A DNA stretch of 45,913 nt, taken from Escherichia coli. GTDB lineage: Bacteria; Pseudomonadota; Gammaproteobacteria; Enterobacterales; Enterobacteriaceae. The position numbers were made by a program, and so were the translations under genes. The DNA lies in the NCBI RefSeq assembly GCF_003334785.1, contig NZ_QOWV01000023.1. One strand, written 5' to 3'. The notes below the pieces were generated by a model that saw nothing but the letters and a program-made list of their open reading frames with translations, did no database searches and was not told the DNA's origin. Each line of letters opens with the position of its first letter. The first letter of the stretch is position 1. This document shows positions 1-32,650 of this stretch, piece after piece.

Positions 1-632
1 GCCTGCCGGGGCAGCAGTATGATGAGGAGTCCGGCCTGTATTACAACCGCCACCGCTATTATGACCCGCTGCAGGGGAGGTATATCACTCAGGATCCGAT
101 TGGGCTGAAGGGGGGATGGAATTTTTATCAGTATCCGCTGAATCCGGTTCAGTATATAGATTCAATGGGACTGGCATCAAAATATGGACACTTAAATAAT
201 GGCGGATATGGAGCGAGACCCAACAAACCGCCTACGCCCGATCCAAGTAAATTGCCGGACATAGCGAAACAATTAAGACTGCCATATCCTATTGACCAGG
301 CCAGTAGTGCGCCTAATGTTTTCAAAACATTCTTCAGAGCATTAAGCCCTTACGACTACACACTGTATTGCAGGAAGTGGGTAAAACCAAATCTGACTTG
401 TACGCCACAGGATGATTCCCAGTATCCAGGGATGGATACAAAGACAGCAAGTGATTACCTGCCACAGACAAATTGGCCAACAACTCAATTACCACCAGGA
501 TATACTTGTGCAGAACCCTATTTATTCCCAGACATTAATAAACCCGATGGGCCAGCAACAGCAGGGATAGATGATTTGGGTGAAATTTTAGCTAAGATGA
601 AACAGAGAACATCGAGAGGAATAAGAAAATGA
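1..632 (+). CDS. ybfO: Rhs-family protein, C-terminal fragment (5' end outside window): end of the Rhs core with a DPIGL motif (nt 93-107) followed by a ~175-aa variable C-terminal tip
   Basis: Frame continuous from nt 3 ([57 protein letters not shown]...), a typical Rhs core terminus; stop overlaps the next ORF start (ATGA at 629-632). Symbol from remembered K-12 synteny (orphan rhs next to ybfC). Confidence 0.8.
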
Positions 633-1198
633 AAAGAGTTTTGTTCTTTTTGCTGATGATATTTGTTAGTTTTGGTGTTATAGCTGATTGCGAAATACAA
701 GCTAAAGATCATGATTGTTTTACTATTTTCGCTAAGGGTACTATTTTTTCCGCGTTTCCTGTCTTAAATAATAAAGCCATGTGGAGATGGTATCAGAATG
801 AGGACATCGGTGAGTATTATTGGCAAACAGAACTGGGTACATGTAAAAATAATAAATTCACACCAAGCGGGGCGAGACTCTTAATTCGCGTCGGGTCACT
901 ACGCCTTAATGAAAATCATGCCATCAAAGGAACGTTGCAGGAGTTGATAAATACAGCAGAAAAAACGGCGTTTCTCGGCGATCGGTTTAGAAGTTATATA
1001 AGAGCGGGTATCTATCAAAAAAAGAGCAGTGATCCAGTTCAGTTGTTGGCAGTCCTTGATAATTCAATCATGGTAAAATATTTTAAAGATGAGAAACCAA
1101 CTTATGCTCGAATGACAGCACATCTCCCGAACAAAAATGAGTCTTACGAATGTTTAATAAAGATACAGCATGAACTAATTCGTAGTGAAGAGAAATAA
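629..1198 (+). CDS. ybfC: Small protein with N-terminal hydrophobic signal-like segment, immediately downstream of the Rhs tip; candidate cognate immunity protein
   Basis: 189-aa ORF, start overlaps the rhs stop by 4 nt; N-terminus [21 protein letters not shown] is signal-peptide-like. Immunity role inferred from the Rhs toxin/immunity gene-pair paradigm. Confidence 0.8.
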
Positions 1199-1280
1199 AA
1201 TCTCTTCCTGAGAAAACAAATTAATCATTGTGAAAAATTATATAACTCATGGAATAGGTGTTTATTTTGCGTTCCATTTG

Positions 1281-2570
1281 CAGGGAAAGATCACGTAACG
1301 CTACTTTTTTGTACTAAATAATTCGCATTTTATGTTTAAAAATTGAGATATTCCTTATTACCTAAAGCTGTTTTTCATAGCTTATACATGATCAAATACT
1401 CCTTACATAAATAAGGTGAACAAATGGAACTTAAAAAATTGATGGAACATATTTCTATTATTCCCGATTACAGATAAGCCTGGAAAGTAGAGCATAAATT
1501 GTCAGGCATCCTACTATTGACTATTTTTGCCGTTATTTCTGGTGCAGAAAGTTGGGAAGATATAGAGGATTTCGGGGAAACACATCTCGATTTCTTGAAG
1601 CAATATGGTGATTTTGAAAATGGTATTCCTGTTCACGATACTATTGCCAGAGTTGTATCCTGTATCAGTCCTGCAAAATTTCACGAGTGCTTTATTAACT
1701 GGATGCGTGATTGCCATTCATCAAATGATAAAGACGTCATTGCAATTGATGGAAAAACGCTCCGGCACTCTTATGACAAGAGTCGCCGCAGGGGAGCGAT
1801 TCATGTCATTAGTGCGTTCTCAACAATGCACAGTCTGGTCATCGGGCAGATCAAGACGGATAAGAAATCCAATGAGATCACAGCTATCCCTGAACTTCTT
1901 AACATGCTGGATATTAAAGGAAAAATCATCACAACTGATGCGATGGGTTGCCAGAAAGATATTGCAGAGAAGATACAAAAACAGGGAGGTGATTATTTAT
2001 TCGCTGTAAAAGGAAACCAGGGGCGGCTTAATAAAGCCTTTGAGGAAAAATTTCCGCTGAAAGAATTAAATAATCCAGAGCATGACAGTTACGCAATGAG
2101 TGAAAAGAGTCACGGCAGAGAAGAAATCCGTCTTCATATTGTTTGCGATGTCCCTGATGAACTTATTGATTTCACGTTTGAATGGAAAGGACTGAAGAAA
2201 TTATGCGTGGCAGTCTCCTTTCGGTCAATAATAGCAGAACAAAAGAAAGAGCCAGAAATGACGGTCAGATATTATATCAGTTCTGCTGATTTAACCGCAG
2301 AAAAGTTCGCCACAGCAATCCGAAACCACTGGCACGTGGAGAATAAGCTGCACTGGCGTCTGGACGTGGTAATGAATGAAGACGACTGCAAAATAAGAAG
2401 AGGAAACGCCGCAGAATTATTTTCAGGGATACGGCACATCGCTATTAATATTTTAACGAATGATAAGGTATTCAAGGCAGGGTTAAGACGTAAGATGCGA
2501 AAAGCAGCCATGGATAGAAACTATCTCGCGTCAGTCCTTGCGGGGAGCGGGCTTTCGTAATCTTTCCCTG
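1281..2570 (+). mobile_element. H-repeat (ISAs1-family-like) element, copy 1, ~1290 bp with imperfect 15-bp terminal inverted repeats
   Basis: Left end CAGGGAAAGATCACG (1281-1295); right end CGTAATCTTTCCCTG (2556-2570), whose reverse complement is CAGGGAAAGATTACG. Contains one transposase-like ORF. Confidence 0.7.
1424..2560 (+). pseudogene. ybfL: H-repeat-associated transposase-like gene inactivated by an in-frame TAA at 1475-1477; otherwise full length (~378 codons)
   Basis: ATG at 1424 ([17 protein letters not shown]) runs into TAA where copy 2 has CAA; the frame then stays open to 2560 (ORF track 1499..2560). Symbol ybfQ/ybfL from memory, assignment between the two uncertain. Confidence 0.75.
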
Positions 2571-3524
2571 CTTTTTGTACTAAATAATTCGCATTTTATG
2601 TTTAAAAATTGAGATATTCCTTATTACCTGAAGCTGTTTTTTATTGCTTATACATGATCAAATACTTCTTACATAATTAAGGAGAACAAAATGGAACTTA
2701 AAAAATTGATGGAACATATTTCTATTATCCCCGATTACAGACAAGCCTGGAAAGTGGAACATAAATTATCGGATATTCTACTGTTGACTATTTGTGCCGT
2801 TATTTCTGGTGCAGAAGGCTGGGAAGATATAGAGGATTTTGGGGAAACACATCCCGATTTTTTGAAGCAATATGGTGATTTTGAAAATGGTATTCCTGTT
2901 CACGATACCATTGCCAGAGTTGTATCCTGTATCTGTCCTGCGAAATTTCATGAGAGCTTTATTAACTGGATGCTTGACTACCATTCTTCAGATGATAAAG
3001 ACGTCATCGCAATTGATGGAAAAATACACCGGCATTCTTATGACAAGAGTCGCCGTAAGGGAGCGATTCATGTCATTAGTGCGTTCTCAACAATGCACAG
3101 TCTGGTCATCGGACAGATCAAGACGGATAAGAAATCCAATGAGATCACAGCTATCCCTGAACTTCTTAACATGCTGGATATTAAAGGAAAAATCATCACA
3201 ACTGATGCGATGGGTTGCCAGAAAGATATTGCAGAGAAGATACAAAAACAGGGAGGTGATTATTTATTCGCTGTAAAAGGAAACCAGGGGCGGCTAAATA
3301 AAGCCTTCGAGGAAAAATTTCCGCTGAAAGAATTAAATAATCCCAAGCATGACAGTTACGCAATTAGTGAAAAGAGTCACGGCAGAGAAGAAACCCGTCT
3401 TCATATTGTTTGCGATGTCCCTGATGAGCTTATTGATTTCACGTTTGAATAGAAAGGGCAGCTATGGTTAGAAACTACCTGACGTCAGTCCTTGCGGGGA
3501 GCAGGCTTTCGTAAATTTGTCCTG
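2571..3524 (+). mobile_element. H-repeat element, copy 2, head-to-tail with copy 1; lacks the left inverted repeat and ~313 bp of internal 3' sequence
   Basis: Homology to copy 1 begins at 2571 (CTTTTTGTACTAAATAATTCGC, equivalent to copy 1 ~1305) and ends in a degenerate right repeat CGTAAATTTGTCCTG (3510-3524). Confidence 0.65.
2691..3452 (+). CDS. ybfD: H-repeat-associated protein, C-terminally truncated transposase-like ORF (253 aa)
   Basis: Near-identical to copy 1 through ...DFTFE, then TAG at 3450-3452 where copy 1 has TGG, followed by a ~313-bp deletion relative to copy 1. Confidence 0.8.
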
Positions 3525-28870: not shown

Positions 28871-29739
28871 TGTCCATTTTAATCGATAAAAACACCAAGG
28901 TTATCTGCCAGGGCTTTACCGGTAGCCAGGGGACTTTCCACTCAGAACAGGCCATTGCATACGGCACTAAAATGGTTGGCGGCGTAACCCCAGGTAAAGG
29001 CGGCACCACCCACCTCGGCCTGCCGGTGTTCAACACCGTGCGTGAAGCCGTTGCTGCCACTGGCGCTACCGCTTCTGTTATCTACGTACCAGCACCGTTC
29101 TGCAAAGACTCCATTCTGGAAGCCATCGACGCAGGCATCAAACTGATTATCACCATCACTGAAGGCATCCCGACGCTGGATATGCTGACCGTGAAAGTGA
29201 AGCTGGATGAAGCAGGCGTTCGTATGATCGGCCCGAACTGCCCAGGCGTTATCACTCCGGGTGAATGCAAAATCGGTATCCAGCCTGGTCACATTCACAA
29301 ACCGGGTAAAGTGGGTATCGTTTCCCGTTCCGGTACACTGACCTATGAAGCGGTTAAACAGACCACGGATTACGGTTTCGGTCAGTCGACCTGTGTCGGT
29401 ATCGGCGGTGACCCGATCCCGGGCTCTAACTTTATCGACATTCTCGAAATGTTCGAAAAAGATCCGCAGACCGAAGCGATCGTGATGATCGGTGAGATCG
29501 GCGGTAGCGCTGAAGAAGAAGCAGCTGCGTACATCAAAGAGCACGTTACCAAGCCAGTTGTGGGTTACATCGCTGGTGTGACTGCGCCGAAAGGCAAACG
29601 TATGGGCCACGCGGGTGCCATCATTGCCGGTGGGAAAGGGACTGCGGATGAGAAATTCGCTGCTCTGGAAGCCGCAGGCGTGAAAACCGTTCGCAGCCTG
29701 GCGGATATCGGTGAAGCACTGAAAACTGTTCTGAAATAA
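28870..29739 (+). CDS. sucD: Succinyl-CoA synthetase alpha subunit
   Basis: 289-aa ORF ([28 protein letters not shown]...). Confidence 0.97.
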
Positions 29740-29838
29740 ATATCTGTAATAAGAAATAGCCCTCGCCGCTTCCCTCTACAGGAATGGCGAAGGGCTGTCG
29801 GTTTCGACATGGTTGGCCATCGTATGATGGCCTTTTTT
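29740..29838 (+). ncRNA. sdhX: 3'-UTR-derived small RNA of the sdh-suc operon (SdhX/RybD-like); boundaries approximate
   Basis: ~100 nt between sucD stop and terminator containing stem GCCCTCGCC/GGCGAAGGGC and a terminal hairpin; identity from remembered literature on a 3'-UTR sRNA downstream of sucD. Confidence 0.5.
29815..29838 (+). terminator. Intrinsic terminator of the sdh-suc operon
   Basis: Hairpin GGCCATC/GATGGCC (29815-29821 with 29826-29832) followed by TTTTTT (29833-29838); sits directly against the convergent mngR stop (29843). Confidence 0.7.
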
Positions 29839-29842
29839 GTGC

Positions 29843-30565
29843 TTATCGCGATGATTTTCGCTGCGCTATCAGGGTAAATTTATAGTCATCGGTATTAAAA
29901 GCGTTGCGGCTATATTCAAACACCCGACCATCAACTAAATATCCACGCGATACTTTTTCAAGAATCGGCTTTGTCTGGCTGATATTAAGCAGACGGCTCA
30001 TCTCTTCGGTTGGCATCAGAGGAATGATTTCCTGTTCGCTACGATCGATAACCATTTTCTTCACTTCTTCGATAAAGTGATATTTCGAATTTTCCATGAC
30101 CTGCCAGGTGAGATCCGGGAACAACGCAAGCGGCATCCAGGTTTCTTCCAGCGCCATTGGCTTTTGCTTGCGATAGCGCACGCGCTTCACATGCCACACA
30201 CGATCCTGCGGGGTGATTTGTAGCTGTTGCTGAAGAAAATCGTCAGCCGGAATCACTTCGAATATCAGAACTTCACTGTGTGTATCGACGTGACGGTCCG
30301 ACAGTTTTTCATCAAAACTGGTTAACTGAAAAATATCGTAATTGACCCGCTCTTCTTTGACGTAAGTCCCGCTGCCCTGAATGCTTTCGAGGATCTGCTG
30401 CTCGACTAGCTGGCGCAAAGCCTGACGCACCGTAACCCGGCTGACGCCAAACTCTGTTTGTAGCGCTGATTCAGTGGGTAACGCATCGCCAGGTTTAAGC
30501 TCGCCACGCGCAATTTGTTCACGAATGCGATCGGCAATCTGCCGGTATAAGGGCTTGTGTCCCAT
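29843..30565 (-). CDS. mngR: GntR/HutC-family transcriptional repressor of mannosyl-D-glycerate utilisation
   Basis: 240-aa ORF; N-terminal winged-HTH (...EFGVSRVTVRQALRQL...) plus UTRA-type C-terminus; formerly farR. Confidence 0.9.
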   Translation of the reverse strand: MGHKPLYRQIADRIREQIARGELKPGDALPTESALQTEFGVSRVTVRQALRQLVEQQILESIQGSGTYVKEERVNYDIFQLTSFDEKLSDRHVDTHSEVLIFEVIPADDFLQQQLQITPQDRVWHVKRVRYRKQKPMALEETWMPLALFPDLTWQVMENSKYHFIEEVKKMVIDRSEQEIIPLMPTEEMSRLLNISQTKPILEKVSRGYLVDGRVFEYSRNAFNTDDYKFTLIAQRKSSR

Positions 30566-30673
30566 TTTTAGTATCTCATTAATACGAATTTAACCATTAT
30601 GCCCGATAAATTCATCCTGTAAATAATACAAATACAACACAAATAATTTCAATCAAGTGAAATTGATCACATA

Positions 30674-32650
30674 ATGGTATTGTTTTATCGGGCACACTGG
30701 CGCGACTATAAAAACGATCAAGTGAGGATCATGATGAATCTGACGACTCTGACCCACCGCGATGCGTTGTGTCTGAATGCGCGCTTTACCAGCCGTGAAG
30801 AGGCCATCCACGCGTTGACTCAACGTCTTGCTGCTCTGGGGAAAATTTCCAGTACTGAGCAATTTCTGGAAGAAGTGTATCGCCGTGAAAGCCTTGGCCC
30901 GACCGCCTTAGGTGAAGGGTTGGCTGTGCCGCATGGCAAAACTGCTGCGGTAAAAGAAGCGGCGTTTGCGGTCGCCACACTCAGCGAGCCGCTTCAGTGG
31001 GAAGGCGTTGATGGCCCGGAAGCAGTTGATTTAGTGGTGCTGCTGGCGATTCCCCCCAATGAAGCGGGTACTACGCATATGCAACTGCTGACAGCGCTGA
31101 CCACGCGCCTTGCGGATGATGAGATTCGGGCGCGTATACAGTCGGCGACGACGCCTGATGAGTTGCTCTCGGCGCTGGATGACAAGGGAGGCACGCAACC
31201 TTCTGCCTCTTTTTCCAACGCGCCAACTATCGTCTGCGTAACGGCCTGTCCGGCGGGTATTGCTCACACCTATATGGCTGCGGAATATCTGGAAAAAGCC
31301 GGACGCAAACTCGGCGTAAATGTTTACGTTGAAAAACAAGGCGCTAACGGCATTGAAGGGCGTTTAACGGCGGATCAACTCAATAGTGCAACCGCCTGTA
31401 TTTTTGCGGCTGAAGTCGCCATCAAGGAGAGTGAGCGTTTTAATGGCATTCCCGCGCTTTCAGTGCCTGTTGCCGAGCCGATTCGCCATGCAGAAGCGTT
31501 GATCCAACAAGCGCTTACCCTCAAGCGTAGCGATGAGACGCGTACCGTACAGCAAGATACGCAACCGGTGAAAAGTGTCAAAACGGAGCTGAAACAGGCA
31601 CTGTTGAGCGGAATCTCTTTTGCCGTACCGTTGATTGTCGCGGGGGGCACGGTGCTGGCGGTCGCGGTATTACTGTCGCAAATCTTCGGGCTACAAGATC
31701 TGTTTAATGAAGAAAACTCCTGGCTGTGGATGTACCGCAAGCTGGGCGGCGGGCTGCTCGGAATTTTGATGGTACCGGTGCTCGCGGCCTATACCGCCTA
31801 TTCTCTGGCAGATAAACCGGCGTTAGCGCCAGGCTTTGCGGCTGGACTTGCCGCCAACATGATCGGCTCCGGGTTTCTCGGCGCGGTCGTTGGCGGATTG
31901 ATAGCCGGTTACTTGATGCGCTGGGTGAAAAATCACTTGCGTCTTAGCAGTAAATTCAATGGATTCCTGACTTTTTATCTCTACCCGGTGCTCGGTACGT
32001 TGGGAGCGGGCAGTCTGATGCTGTTTGTGGTGGGGGAACCTGTCGCCTGGATCAATAACTCGCTTACCGCCTGGCTGAACGGTCTGTCAGGAAGTAACGC
32101 GCTGTTGCTGGGTGCCATTCTCGGTTTTATGTGTTCCTTTGACCTTGGAGGGCCAGTGAATAAAGCCGCTTATGCATTCTGCCTGGGCGCAATGGCGAAC
32201 GGCGTTTACGGCCCGTATGCCATTTTCGCATCCGTCAAAATGGTTTCGGCATTTACCGTAACCGCTTCCACGATGCTCGCACCGCGCCTGTTTAAAGAGT
32301 TTGAAATTGAGACCGGGAAATCCACCTGGCTGTTAGGGCTGGCAGGTATTACCGAAGGGGCGATCCCGATGGCGATTGAAGATCCGCTGCGGGTTATTGG
32401 TTCGTTTGTGCTGGGCTCTATGGTAACGGGCGCTATTGTCGGTGCGATGAATATCGGCCTTTCGACACCCGGTGCCGGCATTTTCTCGCTCTTTTTACTT
32501 CATGATAATGGCGCGGGCGGTGTTATGGCGGCAATTGGCTGGTTTGGCGCGGCATTGGTGGGGGCTGCAATCTCGACTGCAATTCTCCTGATGTGGCGGC
32601 GTCACGCGGTTAAGCATGGCAACTATCTGACTGATGGCGTAATGCCATAA
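30674..32650 (+). CDS. mngA: PTS 2-O-alpha-mannosyl-D-glycerate-specific EIIABC component
   Basis: 658-aa ORF as in the track; EIIA-like N-terminal region then EIIB/EIIC membrane domain. An alternative start at 30734 has the better ribosome-binding site (see findings). Confidence 0.88.

Follow-up and report, generated by a model that had tools for sequence, protein, structure and literature searches.

Evidence for a conserved downstream start codon of mngA and a predicted layout of the divergent mngR-mngA control region in Escherichia coli

Introduction

At which ATG does the translation of mngA start in E. coli, and do the mirrored motifs in front of this gene form an operator? Both questions arise from a K-12-like E. 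coli segment of 45.9 kb (hereafter, the window, meaning the whole stretch of DNA that was analysed). In the window, mngR and mngA are divergently oriented and separated by an intergenic region of 168 bp. The listing of open reading frames gives a long mngA frame (30674-32650, 658 aa, MVLFYRAHW...), which contains two further in-frame ATGs, one at 30731 (codon 20) and one at 30734 (codon 21, MNLTTL...). The first-pass annotation of this DNA, whose coordinates and sequences were all correct when checked against the window sequence, raised 30734 as a possible true start. It also described two pairs of mirrored motifs near the starts of both genes, where a repressor operator might be expected.

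Results

Start codon of mngA

Eighty orthologous mngA loci from Enterobacterales, Aeromonas and Vibrionaceae were compared. In 78 of these loci, mngA is preceded by a divergently oriented mngR homologue. The alignment of orthologue N-termini, which the first-pass annotation had suggested as a check, likewise placed an ATG at the position equivalent to 30734 in 78 of the 80. Homology between the orthologues begins at residue 1 of the short form, and none was found upstream of residue 21 of the long form in any locus. Moreover, 49 of the 80 loci have an in-frame stop codon within 19 codons upstream of the aligned start, and a stop-free run of 20 codons has a chance expectation of about 38%.

The Shine-Dalgarno signals point in the same direction. 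The best anti-Shine-Dalgarno duplex upstream of ATG 30674 reaches only -1.6 kcal/mol (random 20-mers average -2.46), which confirms the earlier remark that this codon has no obvious ribosome-binding site. The GAGGA noted 5 nt upstream of ATG 30734 is indeed present, and its duplex of -7.6 kcal/mol falls within the top 3.4% of random 20-mers.

Based on NCBIfam, MngA matches the equivalog whole-protein HMM NF007293 with 1286.1 bits, above the cut-off of 763, and positions 1-639 of the profile align to residues 20-658 of the long form. Position 5 of the Pfam model PTS_EIIA_2 corresponds to long-form residue 29, so the domain would start near long-form residue 25, about five residues past the short-form start, in agreement with the proposal that ATG 30734 coincides with the start of the EIIA-like domain. 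The family N-terminus defined by NCBIfam, Pfam and the orthologues thus fits the proposed start and not the annotated start of the 658-aa form. In the four genomes inspected, RefSeq PGAP invariably places the mngA start at the equivalent of 30734 (638 aa, WP_001054864.1) and annotates no feature across the equivalent of 30655-30714. The 638-aa start is therefore already known from the RefSeq/PGAP annotation of other E. coli genomes. It is only the MG1655 reference entry NP_415259.1 (b0731) that starts 60 nt earlier and has 658 aa. A search of the accessible papers for N-terminal peptide or translation-initiation data on mngA found none. The supplements of tetracycline ribosome profiling hold no mngA entry, as expected for a repressed gene.

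It is conceivable that the adjacent ATG 30731 is used instead, yielding 639 aa (MMNLTT...). NF007293 has 639 positions, the first of which equals long-form residue 20, and many Enterobacteriaceae have ATG, GTG or TTG one codon before the conserved ATG. However, GAGGA is only 2 nt away from ATG 30731, compared with 5 nt for ATG 30734, and PGAP picks the latter. In addition, Enterobacter, Aeromonas and Vibrionaceae have no start codon at this preceding position (CTT, ATC and GTT are found there), yet they keep the ATG aligned to 30734. We consider a start at 30731 quite improbable.

The 658-aa form, alone or as a second isoform, could be real in K-12-type strains if the mRNA began further upstream. 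The frame is open from 30674, 2762 of the roughly 3868 E. coli genomes with this locus retain an intact ATG 30674, and the MG1655 reference still carries the 658-aa model. An upstream plus-strand promoter, TTAATA-19-GATAAA, was predicted in a SELEX-chip paper from sequence alone (PMC3946193), whereas our promoter scan gave no plus-strand promoter upstream. Besides the missing Shine-Dalgarno sequence, the absence of upstream homology and the in-frame stops given above, variation within the species argues against this form. In B2-type sequence, found as an exact 60-mer in 535 E. coli genomes, ATG 30674 is out of frame, and 112 genomes of the strain-222 type have ATA in its place. The codon is therefore frame-shifted or replaced by ATA in at least 647 E. 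coli genomes in total, and Escherichia sp. L007 has ATA there as well. Furthermore, ATG 30674 sits within conserved non-coding blocks, namely the flank of a CRP-type site and a GTATT box, and any plausible transcription start of mngA falls downstream of it, whichever of the three -10 candidates considered below is taken. The production of a 658-aa form is thus very improbable.

Judging by these comparisons, ATG 30734 is strongly supported as the real and conserved start of mngA, and ATG 30674 is not. The MG1655 reference model would be 20 codons too long, and the residues of the extension are almost certainly not made. We suggest that ATG 30674 arose within promoter DNA by a lineage-specific change from TAAATGTATT to TAATGGTATT.

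Predicted elements of the control region

The elements assigned to the control region are collected in Table 1. In the Enterobacteriaceae, the conserved alignment blocks fall exactly at these elements.

Table 1. Genes and assigned or predicted control elements of the mngR-mngA locus (positions in the window)
Feature	Position	Strand	Basis and remarks
mngR (farR) CDS, GntR/HutC-family repressor	29843..30565	-	ORF and annotation; divergent from mngA
Box 1, TAATAC (GTATTA on minus strand), MngR-type half-site	30580..30585	-	Conserved as TAATAC(C/G) in Enterobacteriaceae; MngR binding presumed
mngR -10 CATAAT, predicted	30596..30601	-	Promoter scan (TTTACA-16-CATAAT); within the ACCATTAT motif
mngR promoter spacer, 16 nt	30602..30617	-	Variable alignment columns, not conserved between genera; contains most of GCCCGATAAA
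mngR -35 TTTACA, predicted	30618..30623	-	Promoter scan; TTTAC(A/T) in 32/32 extracted arms
Box 2, ATACAAAT (ATTTGTAT on minus strand), putative MngR/FarR-type operator repeat	30626..30633	+	Conservation
Box 3, ACACAAAT here (ATACAAAT in MG1655 and nearly all relatives), second putative operator repeat	30637..30644	+	Conservation
CRP-type site AGTGA-AATTGA-TCACA, AGTGAAATTGATCACA, putative	30656..30671	+	9/10 core positions; centre 30663.5
Right arm of 9-nt repeat, CATAATGGT	30670..30678	+	Overlaps CRP right flank and box 4; contains ATG 30674-30676
Box 4, AATGGTATT (consensus AAATGTATT), inverted MngR-type half-site	30673..30681	+	GTATT conserved across Enterobacteriaceae; between CRP site and predicted -10
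Right arm of 11-nt repeat, TTTATCGGGCA	30684..30694	+	Spacer and extended -10 region of predicted mngA promoter; left arm 30600-30610
mngA -10 CACACT, predicted (CACAAT in most relatives)	30693..30698	+	From conservation
mngA transcription start, predicted	30704..30706	+	From promoter geometry with CRP centre at -41.5; MG1655 ~766015
mngA Shine-Dalgarno GAGGA	30724..30728	+	Anti-SD duplex; most Enterobacteriaceae loci have GAGGA or a similar sequence here
mngA CDS as supported, 638 aa, MNLTTL..., PTS EIIABC for 2-O-alpha-mannosyl-D-glycerate	30734..32650	+	PGAP start in four other genomes, orthologue N-termini, NCBIfam, Pfam

The predicted -10 hexamer of mngR was found as CATAAT (GATAAT in two species) in all 32 extracted Enterobacteriaceae arms. 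The intergenic region contains repeats of the TGTATT type, i.e., ATACAAAT in box 2 and A(C/T)ACAAAT in box 3. Of 75 orthologous intergenic regions, 73 contain AATACAA, and box 2 keeps a constant distance (-36 to -38) to the centre of the CRP-type site. Box 3 is 11 bp from box 2 and carries in the window a T-to-C change at 30638, a variant shared by 8 of 5426 complete E. coli genomes. The mngR transcript is predicted to start at about 30589 (MG1655 ~765899), which would put box 1 at roughly +5 to +10. In Vibrionaceae, ATTTGTAT is located at +12 from the CRP centre and is followed by a second GGTATTAT.

In the window, no sequence other than this CRP-type site matches the CRP consensus with one mismatch or none. 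When up to two mismatches are allowed, 61 of 75 intergenic regions, drawn from three families, have such a site at a distance of 68-116 nt from the downstream mngA ATG; among other genomes alone, the count is 60 of 74. Two Aliivibrio carry the site without any mismatch. Among 36 species with a short intergenic region, 35 have a hexamer of the form NANNNT at +29 to +34 relative to the CRP centre, and TATTAT occurs at +28 to +33 in 15 of 25 species with a long one. The hexamer predicted for E. coli, CACACT, is weak, and the TG seen in other genera is missing. TATAAA (30707-30712), situated 9 bp downstream, is a better hexamer; it is not conserved and would put CRP at about -56. It could nevertheless be the -10 used in E. 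coli itself. A third candidate, TATTGT (30678-30683), was rejected, being too close to the CRP site and leaving a spacer of only 15 nt to GTGAAA.

The accessible papers yielded no transcription-start data for mngA, and the tables of Kim 2012 contain no entry for mngA or mngR. Likewise, no published CRP control of mngA was found, with neither gene appearing in the CRP SELEX-chip paper and its supplements. The papers in which either gene is mentioned contain no details on operators or start sites.

Mirrored repeats

The motifs described in the first-pass annotation, ACCATTAT (30593-30600) and GCCCGATAAA (30601-30610) on the mngR side and ATAATGGT (30671-30678) and TTTATCGGGC (30684-30693) on the mngA side, belong to exact inverted repeats slightly longer than stated there. 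One has 9 nt (ACCATTATG, 30593-30601, and CATAATGGT, 30670-30678) and the other 11 nt (TGCCCGATAAA, 30600-30610, and TTTATCGGGCA, 30684-30694). The mirrored relation is thus real, although the arms follow the order A-B ... A'-B' and not A-B ... B'-A', so the two pairings cannot build a single palindrome or nested hairpin. When the 168-nt intergenic region was shuffled 5000 times with dinucleotides preserved, the probability of one exact inverted repeat of 10 nt or more was 0.029, and that of two with 9 nt or more was 0.004. The inverted repeats therefore exceed chance at a nominal, post-hoc level. No further copy of any motif was found in the 45.9-kb window.

With respect to function, the left-hand motifs comprise the minus-strand -10 hexamer and the spacer of the predicted mngR promoter. 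If mngA starts at 30734, the right-hand motifs would belong to the promoter or leader, as had been anticipated, and both indeed fall in promoter DNA. Only the 3' part of ATAATGGT overlaps the conserved inverted GTATT box (30677-30681). The two conserved ATACAAAT boxes (30626-30644) lie between the motif pairs, and the TAATAC box lies outside them.

It was examined whether the mirrored pairs could be paired sites for MngR or an Escherichia-specific regulator, placed symmetrically over the divergent promoters and possibly serving looping. The rarity of the exact repeats and the position of each pair over or beside a core element of one of the two promoters speak for this reading, as does a partial arm similarity in C. 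amalonaticus (13 of 21). However, the motifs are unlike the conserved ATACAAAT and GTATT boxes, and the alignment shows no conservation of GCCCGATAAA and TTTATCGGGC outside Escherichia, in genera that keep both the mngR-mngA arrangement and the MngR-type boxes. In most other genera, the place of CATAATGGT is taken by ATAAATGT or ATAAAGGT, and that of the 11-nt right arm by TtT.gTCTGnCA, with an extended -10 TG in 25 of 36. Across species, concerted evolution of the arms is absent, the arm-to-arm identity being 8.53 of 21 within species and 8.50 between species. The E. coli lineages alter one arm and not the other, without compensation: CATAATGGT corresponds to GTAAATGT in B2 strains and to ATAATAGT in strain 222 and Escherichia sp. 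L007, and the arms GCCCGATAAA/TTTATCGGGC correspond to GCTCGATAAA/TTTATCAGGC in B2 and to GCACGATAAA/TTTATCGGGC in strain 222. The arms are not ordered as a palindrome, and their similarity is partly explained by the -10 region present in both (GGCAyAAT). It is quite unlikely, then, that the pairs are paired regulatory sites, and the idea of a repressor operator in the mirrored motifs did not hold up. We suggest that the similarity would rather be an accident of the Escherichia lineage or a product of local sequence copying. Given the probability of about 0.004 and the similarity in C. amalonaticus, the repeats could still have some function in the Escherichia/Citrobacter clade.

A broader idea, which we regard as unlikely, is that the mirrored repeats, found in Escherichia and partly in C. 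amalonaticus, are paired sites for a lineage-specific factor or the trace of a recent promoter-to-promoter copying event that couples the expression of mngR and mngA, and, separately, that the CRP site flanked by MngR boxes is an unreported class II CRP input to mngAB.

The folding of the repeats into a regulatory RNA or single-stranded DNA structure (leader hairpin or cruciform) was rejected as exceedingly unlikely: 30586-30702 does form, as single-stranded DNA, an 11-bp long-range stem (-14.4 kcal/mol, z = -3.07 against shuffles), but its loop spans 73 nt, the 9-nt and 11-nt pairs are not nested and cannot form together, no compensatory changes occur in the E. coli variants, an Rfam search of the region gave no family at E of 1 or below, and both arms are located between the transcription starts predicted for the two divergent genes (near 30589 and near 30705), so neither mRNA would contain the two of them.

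Discussion

Based on the above results, the region between mngR and mngA is very probably a compact divergent control region with the layout of Table 1, in which mngA is translated from ATG 30734. The promoters, transcription starts, and CRP and MngR binding in this layout are predicted from sequence and conservation. From left to right, the mngR start (30565) would be followed by box 1, the mngR -10 and -35 on the minus strand and the two ATACAAAT boxes in direct orientation, and then by the CRP-type site, the inverted GTATT box, the weak -10 CACACT, a transcription start near 30705, GAGGA and ATG 30734. With a CRP centre at -41.5, the mngA promoter would be arranged like a class II promoter activated by CRP. 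MngR bound to the boxes flanking the CRP site may repress both promoters until mannosylglycerate is available, and the activation of mngA would require cAMP-CRP.

The main value of these results lies in annotation hygiene for mngA. UniProt and EcoCyc presumably also give MngA as 658 aa. Work in which MngA is cloned, tagged or modelled from the 658-aa record, or in which the promoter and operator are sited by the annotated start, would be misled. In addition, the comparative footprint offers a testable map of the control region, including the mngR promoter, the MngR boxes, the CRP-type site and the predicted mngA start, although such elements are unsurprising for a PTS sugar operon.

Comparison with known systems

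The MngA (HrsA) PTS EIIABC of RefSeq/PGAP has the same product and the same start as supported here. It differs in this start from the 658-aa MG1655 record and from the NF007293 profile, which begins one codon before the PGAP start.

The operator of FarR reportedly consists, following Quail et al. in 1994, of repeats of TGTATTA(A/T)TT in the farR promoter region, and MngR is said to repress mngAB (Sampaio et al., 2004). The ATACAAAT boxes at 30626-30644, reading ATTTGTAT(T) on the minus strand, are the same as this motif. Their immediate neighbour is the mngR -35, in keeping with autoregulation of mngR. The mirrored motifs, in contrast, differ from the operator in sequence and lie beside the boxes. 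The extra half-sites proposed here (30580-30585 and 30677-30681) were assigned by conservation alone.

Finally, the predicted mngA promoter resembles the class II CRP promoters of sugar-catabolic operons, e.g., galP1, with a site at -41.5. Its core, similar to TGTGA-N6-TCACA at 9 of 10 positions, is conserved in front of a PTS sugar operon, a -10-like hexamer is found at a distance compatible with -41.5 from the predicted start, and no -35 is recognisable.

Translation Start of mngA

Based on seven independent lines of evidence, ATG 30734 is favoured as the start of mngA (638 aa) over ATG 30674, which opens the 658-aa long form. In each of four further E. coli genomes examined, PGAP/RefSeq places the start at the equivalent of 30734 (638 aa, e.g., WP_001054864.1; in one of the four, mngA is a frameshifted pseudogene), and the 658-aa form is retained only in the MG1655 record. 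A scan of species-representative genomes gave 80 orthologous loci (Enterobacteriaceae, Serratia, Rahnella, Hafnia, Aeromonas, Vibrio, Photobacterium and others), in which homology starts at query residue 1, corresponding to M21 of the long form. An ATG (MNLTxLT or MKLTxLT) stands at the 30734-equivalent position in 78 of the 80 loci, and an in-frame stop was found no more than 19 codons upstream of it in 49.

Among complete E. coli genomes, the K-12-type 60-mer (30655-30714) was exact in 2762, the B2-type in 535 and the strain-222 type in 112. In the B2 type, the long-form ATG is one base out of frame because ATAATGGT is GTAAATGT there, and in the strain-222 type, as in the related locus of Escherichia sp. 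L007, it is ATA. Long-form residues 20-658 align with positions 1-639 of the NCBIfam model NF007293 (MngA equivalog), and Pfam PTS_EIIA_2 starts at about residue 25. GAGGA (30724-30728), 5 nt before ATG 30734, gives an anti-Shine-Dalgarno duplex of -7.6 kcal/mol, while the duplex upstream of ATG 30674, at -1.6 kcal/mol, falls short of the random mean (-2.46). Furthermore, ATG 30674 falls within a block (CACATAAATGTATT) that other genera conserve as non-coding DNA, inside which it arose in K-12 by a small lineage-specific change, and every candidate mngA promoter puts it upstream of the predicted transcription start. The adjacent ATG 30731 is a minor rival, spaced just 2 nt from GAGGA and missing in many genera.

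The start at 30734, suspected in the first-pass annotation, was borne out by annotation, orthologues, population variants, family models, Shine-Dalgarno energies and conservation. Since the RefSeq pipeline and the family model already use the shorter start, the question is a known annotation discrepancy, decided for 30734.

Genomic Context

The window shares 99.9% identity with MG1655 735311-781223, and the site studied is the divergent mngR (farR)/mngA (hrsA) intergenic region, directly 3' of sucD and sdhX. Window 30674 matches MG1655 position 765984, where b0731 mngA (658 aa) is annotated to start, and 30540-30800 aligns with MG1655 without gaps. The SdhX small RNA is annotated in the MG1655 record at the 3' end of sucD (window 29740-29840). 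At the left end (1-3500), collinearity with MG1655 is broken in the ybfO/ybfC/ybfQ/ybfL/ybfD H-repeat and transposase-remnant region, where BLAST revealed rearranged and duplicated segments of 93-98% identity. The locus is patchy in E. coli: a 601-nt query matched only 3868 of 5426 complete genomes, and the annotation of strain 2013C-3277 lists mngA as a frameshifted pseudogene.

Mirrored Repeats between mngR and mngA

Two motif pairs, mirrored between the mngR and mngA starts, had been noted, the downstream ones falling where a repressor operator would be expected if mngA starts at 30734. All coordinates and sequences proved correct, and the complementary matches run slightly longer than described (Table). 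When the 168-nt intergenic region was shuffled 5000 times with dinucleotides preserved, an exact inverted repeat of 10 nt or more arose with P = 0.029 and two of 9 nt or more with P = 0.004, and neither motif has further copies within the 45.9-kb window; therefore, the repeats are real and nominally beyond chance. Their order is A-B ... A'-B', un-nested, which makes neither a single palindrome nor a single hairpin. A single-stranded fold forms the 11-bp stem (z = -3.07); the hairpin reading was rejected, since the predicted divergent starts flank the two arms on either side, a loop of 73 nt separates them, and no Rfam family was matched in 29600-31000 (E <= 1, SdhX region included).

Table. 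Predicted and observed elements of the mngR-mngA intergenic region (window positions).
Feature	Position	Strand	Sequence or basis
Box 1, just downstream of predicted mngR start	30580-30585	-	TAATAC (GTATTA on -)
Predicted mngR promoter	-35, 30623-30618; -10, 30601-30596	-	TTTACA, 16-nt spacer, CATAAT; promoter scan; in all 32 arms extracted
Two direct putative repressor boxes, 11 bp apart	30626-30633, 30637-30644		ATACAAAT; conservation
CRP-type site	30656-30671		AGTGA-N6-TCACA; one core mismatch; sole such match in window
Inverted GTATT box, just downstream of CRP-type site	30677-30681		consensus AAATGTATT
Predicted mngA -10	30693-30698		CACACT in E. coli, mostly CACAAT elsewhere
9-nt exact inverted repeat	30593-30601 / 30670-30678		ACCATTATG/CATAATGGT
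11-nt exact inverted repeat	30600-30610 / 30684-30694		TGCCCGATAAA/TTTATCGGGCA

The left block (30593-30610) comprises the mngR -10 hexamer and neighbouring promoter spacer. On the right, the 9-mer overlaps the right flank of the CRP-type site and the GTATT box, and the 11-mer sits in the predicted mngA spacer/extended -10 region. The similarity of the arms is due partly to the -10 region (GGCAyAAT) on both sides, and the remainder is lineage-specific. Anchored on the hexamer, arm-to-arm identity was 15/21 in the window and 13/21 in C. amalonaticus, and over 32 species the within-species mean (8.53 of 21) equalled the between-species mean (8.50). Among E. coli lineages, one arm changes independently of the other and no compensatory changes appear (GCTCGATAAA / TTTATCAGGC in B2, GCACGATAAA / TTTATCGGGC in strain 222). 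We conclude that the operator is not formed by the mirrored pairs, which are unconserved across species and drift uncompensated within E. coli. Of the earlier interpretation, the start codon and, given that start, the location of the downstream motifs in promoter DNA stand, and the operator assignment does not. Because conserved boxes stand between and beside the pairs, sequence conservation suggests that MngR would probably bind outside both, the outcome that the first-pass annotation had named as refuting its reading.

MngR-Type Boxes and a Putative CRP-Activated Promoter

A clear phylogenetic footprint emerges from 40 aligned short intergenic regions (that of the window and 39 from other genomes, most of them Enterobacteriaceae) and from 60 regions anchored on the CRP-like site. 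AATACAA occurs in 73 of 75 intergenic regions. Read on the minus strand, the two ATACAAAT boxes give ATTTGTAT(T), which we take to be the motif TGTATTA(A/T)TT reportedly described for FarR by Quail and colleagues in 1994. Vibrionaceae have two inverted GTATT-type boxes 3' of the CRP-type site.

At 30638, the second base of the second box, the T of MG1655 and almost all relatives is replaced by C in the window, giving ACACAAAT. Of 5426 complete E. coli genomes, only 8 contain the exact 60-mer with C, strains ETEC-2265 and TW10722 among them, and the change may make MngR bind less strongly in that lineage. A 20-nt inverted repeat (75% complementarity) joins the mngR start-codon region (30555-30574, TTGTGTCCCATTTTTAGTAT) with the operator boxes (30623-30642, ATAATACAAATACAACACAA); it may merely reflect an extra GTAT/ATAC half-site near the mngR start.

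In 61/75 regions, out to Aeromonas and Vibrionaceae, a CRP-type site with up to two mismatches precedes the mngA ATG by 68-116 nt, and it is perfect in two Aliivibrio. Across this taxonomic range (related loci L007-L086), it is always accompanied by flanking MngR-type boxes. In 35 of 36 short-intergenic species, the bases from +29 to +34 relative to the CRP centre form a hexamer whose second base is A and whose sixth is T, and 25 of the 36 have an extended-10 TG; among 25 long-intergenic species, 15 have TATTAT at the corresponding position. With its centre (30663.5) at -41.5 from an mngA start near 30705, the site would form a class II CRP-activated promoter, presumably flanked by MngR-type boxes, one inside the mngA core promoter. 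TATAAA (30707-30712) is an alternative candidate for the mngA -10 in E. coli, and the available literature yielded no measured mngA transcription start. An exact 9-nt direct repeat, ATCAAGTGA (30652-30660 and 30717-30725), is nested in an 18-nt repeat of 78% identity (30643-30660 / 30708-30725); its first copy reaches into the left half of the CRP-type site and its second into the Shine-Dalgarno sequence.

No report of CRP control of mngAB was found in the papers searched, and this conserved site, with its predicted class II geometry, is possibly unreported. The mngA gene and its repressor are already known, as are the AT-rich operator repeats (Sampaio et al. 2004; Quail et al. 1994). If unreported, the CRP-type site would be an ordinary new example of a well-known kind.
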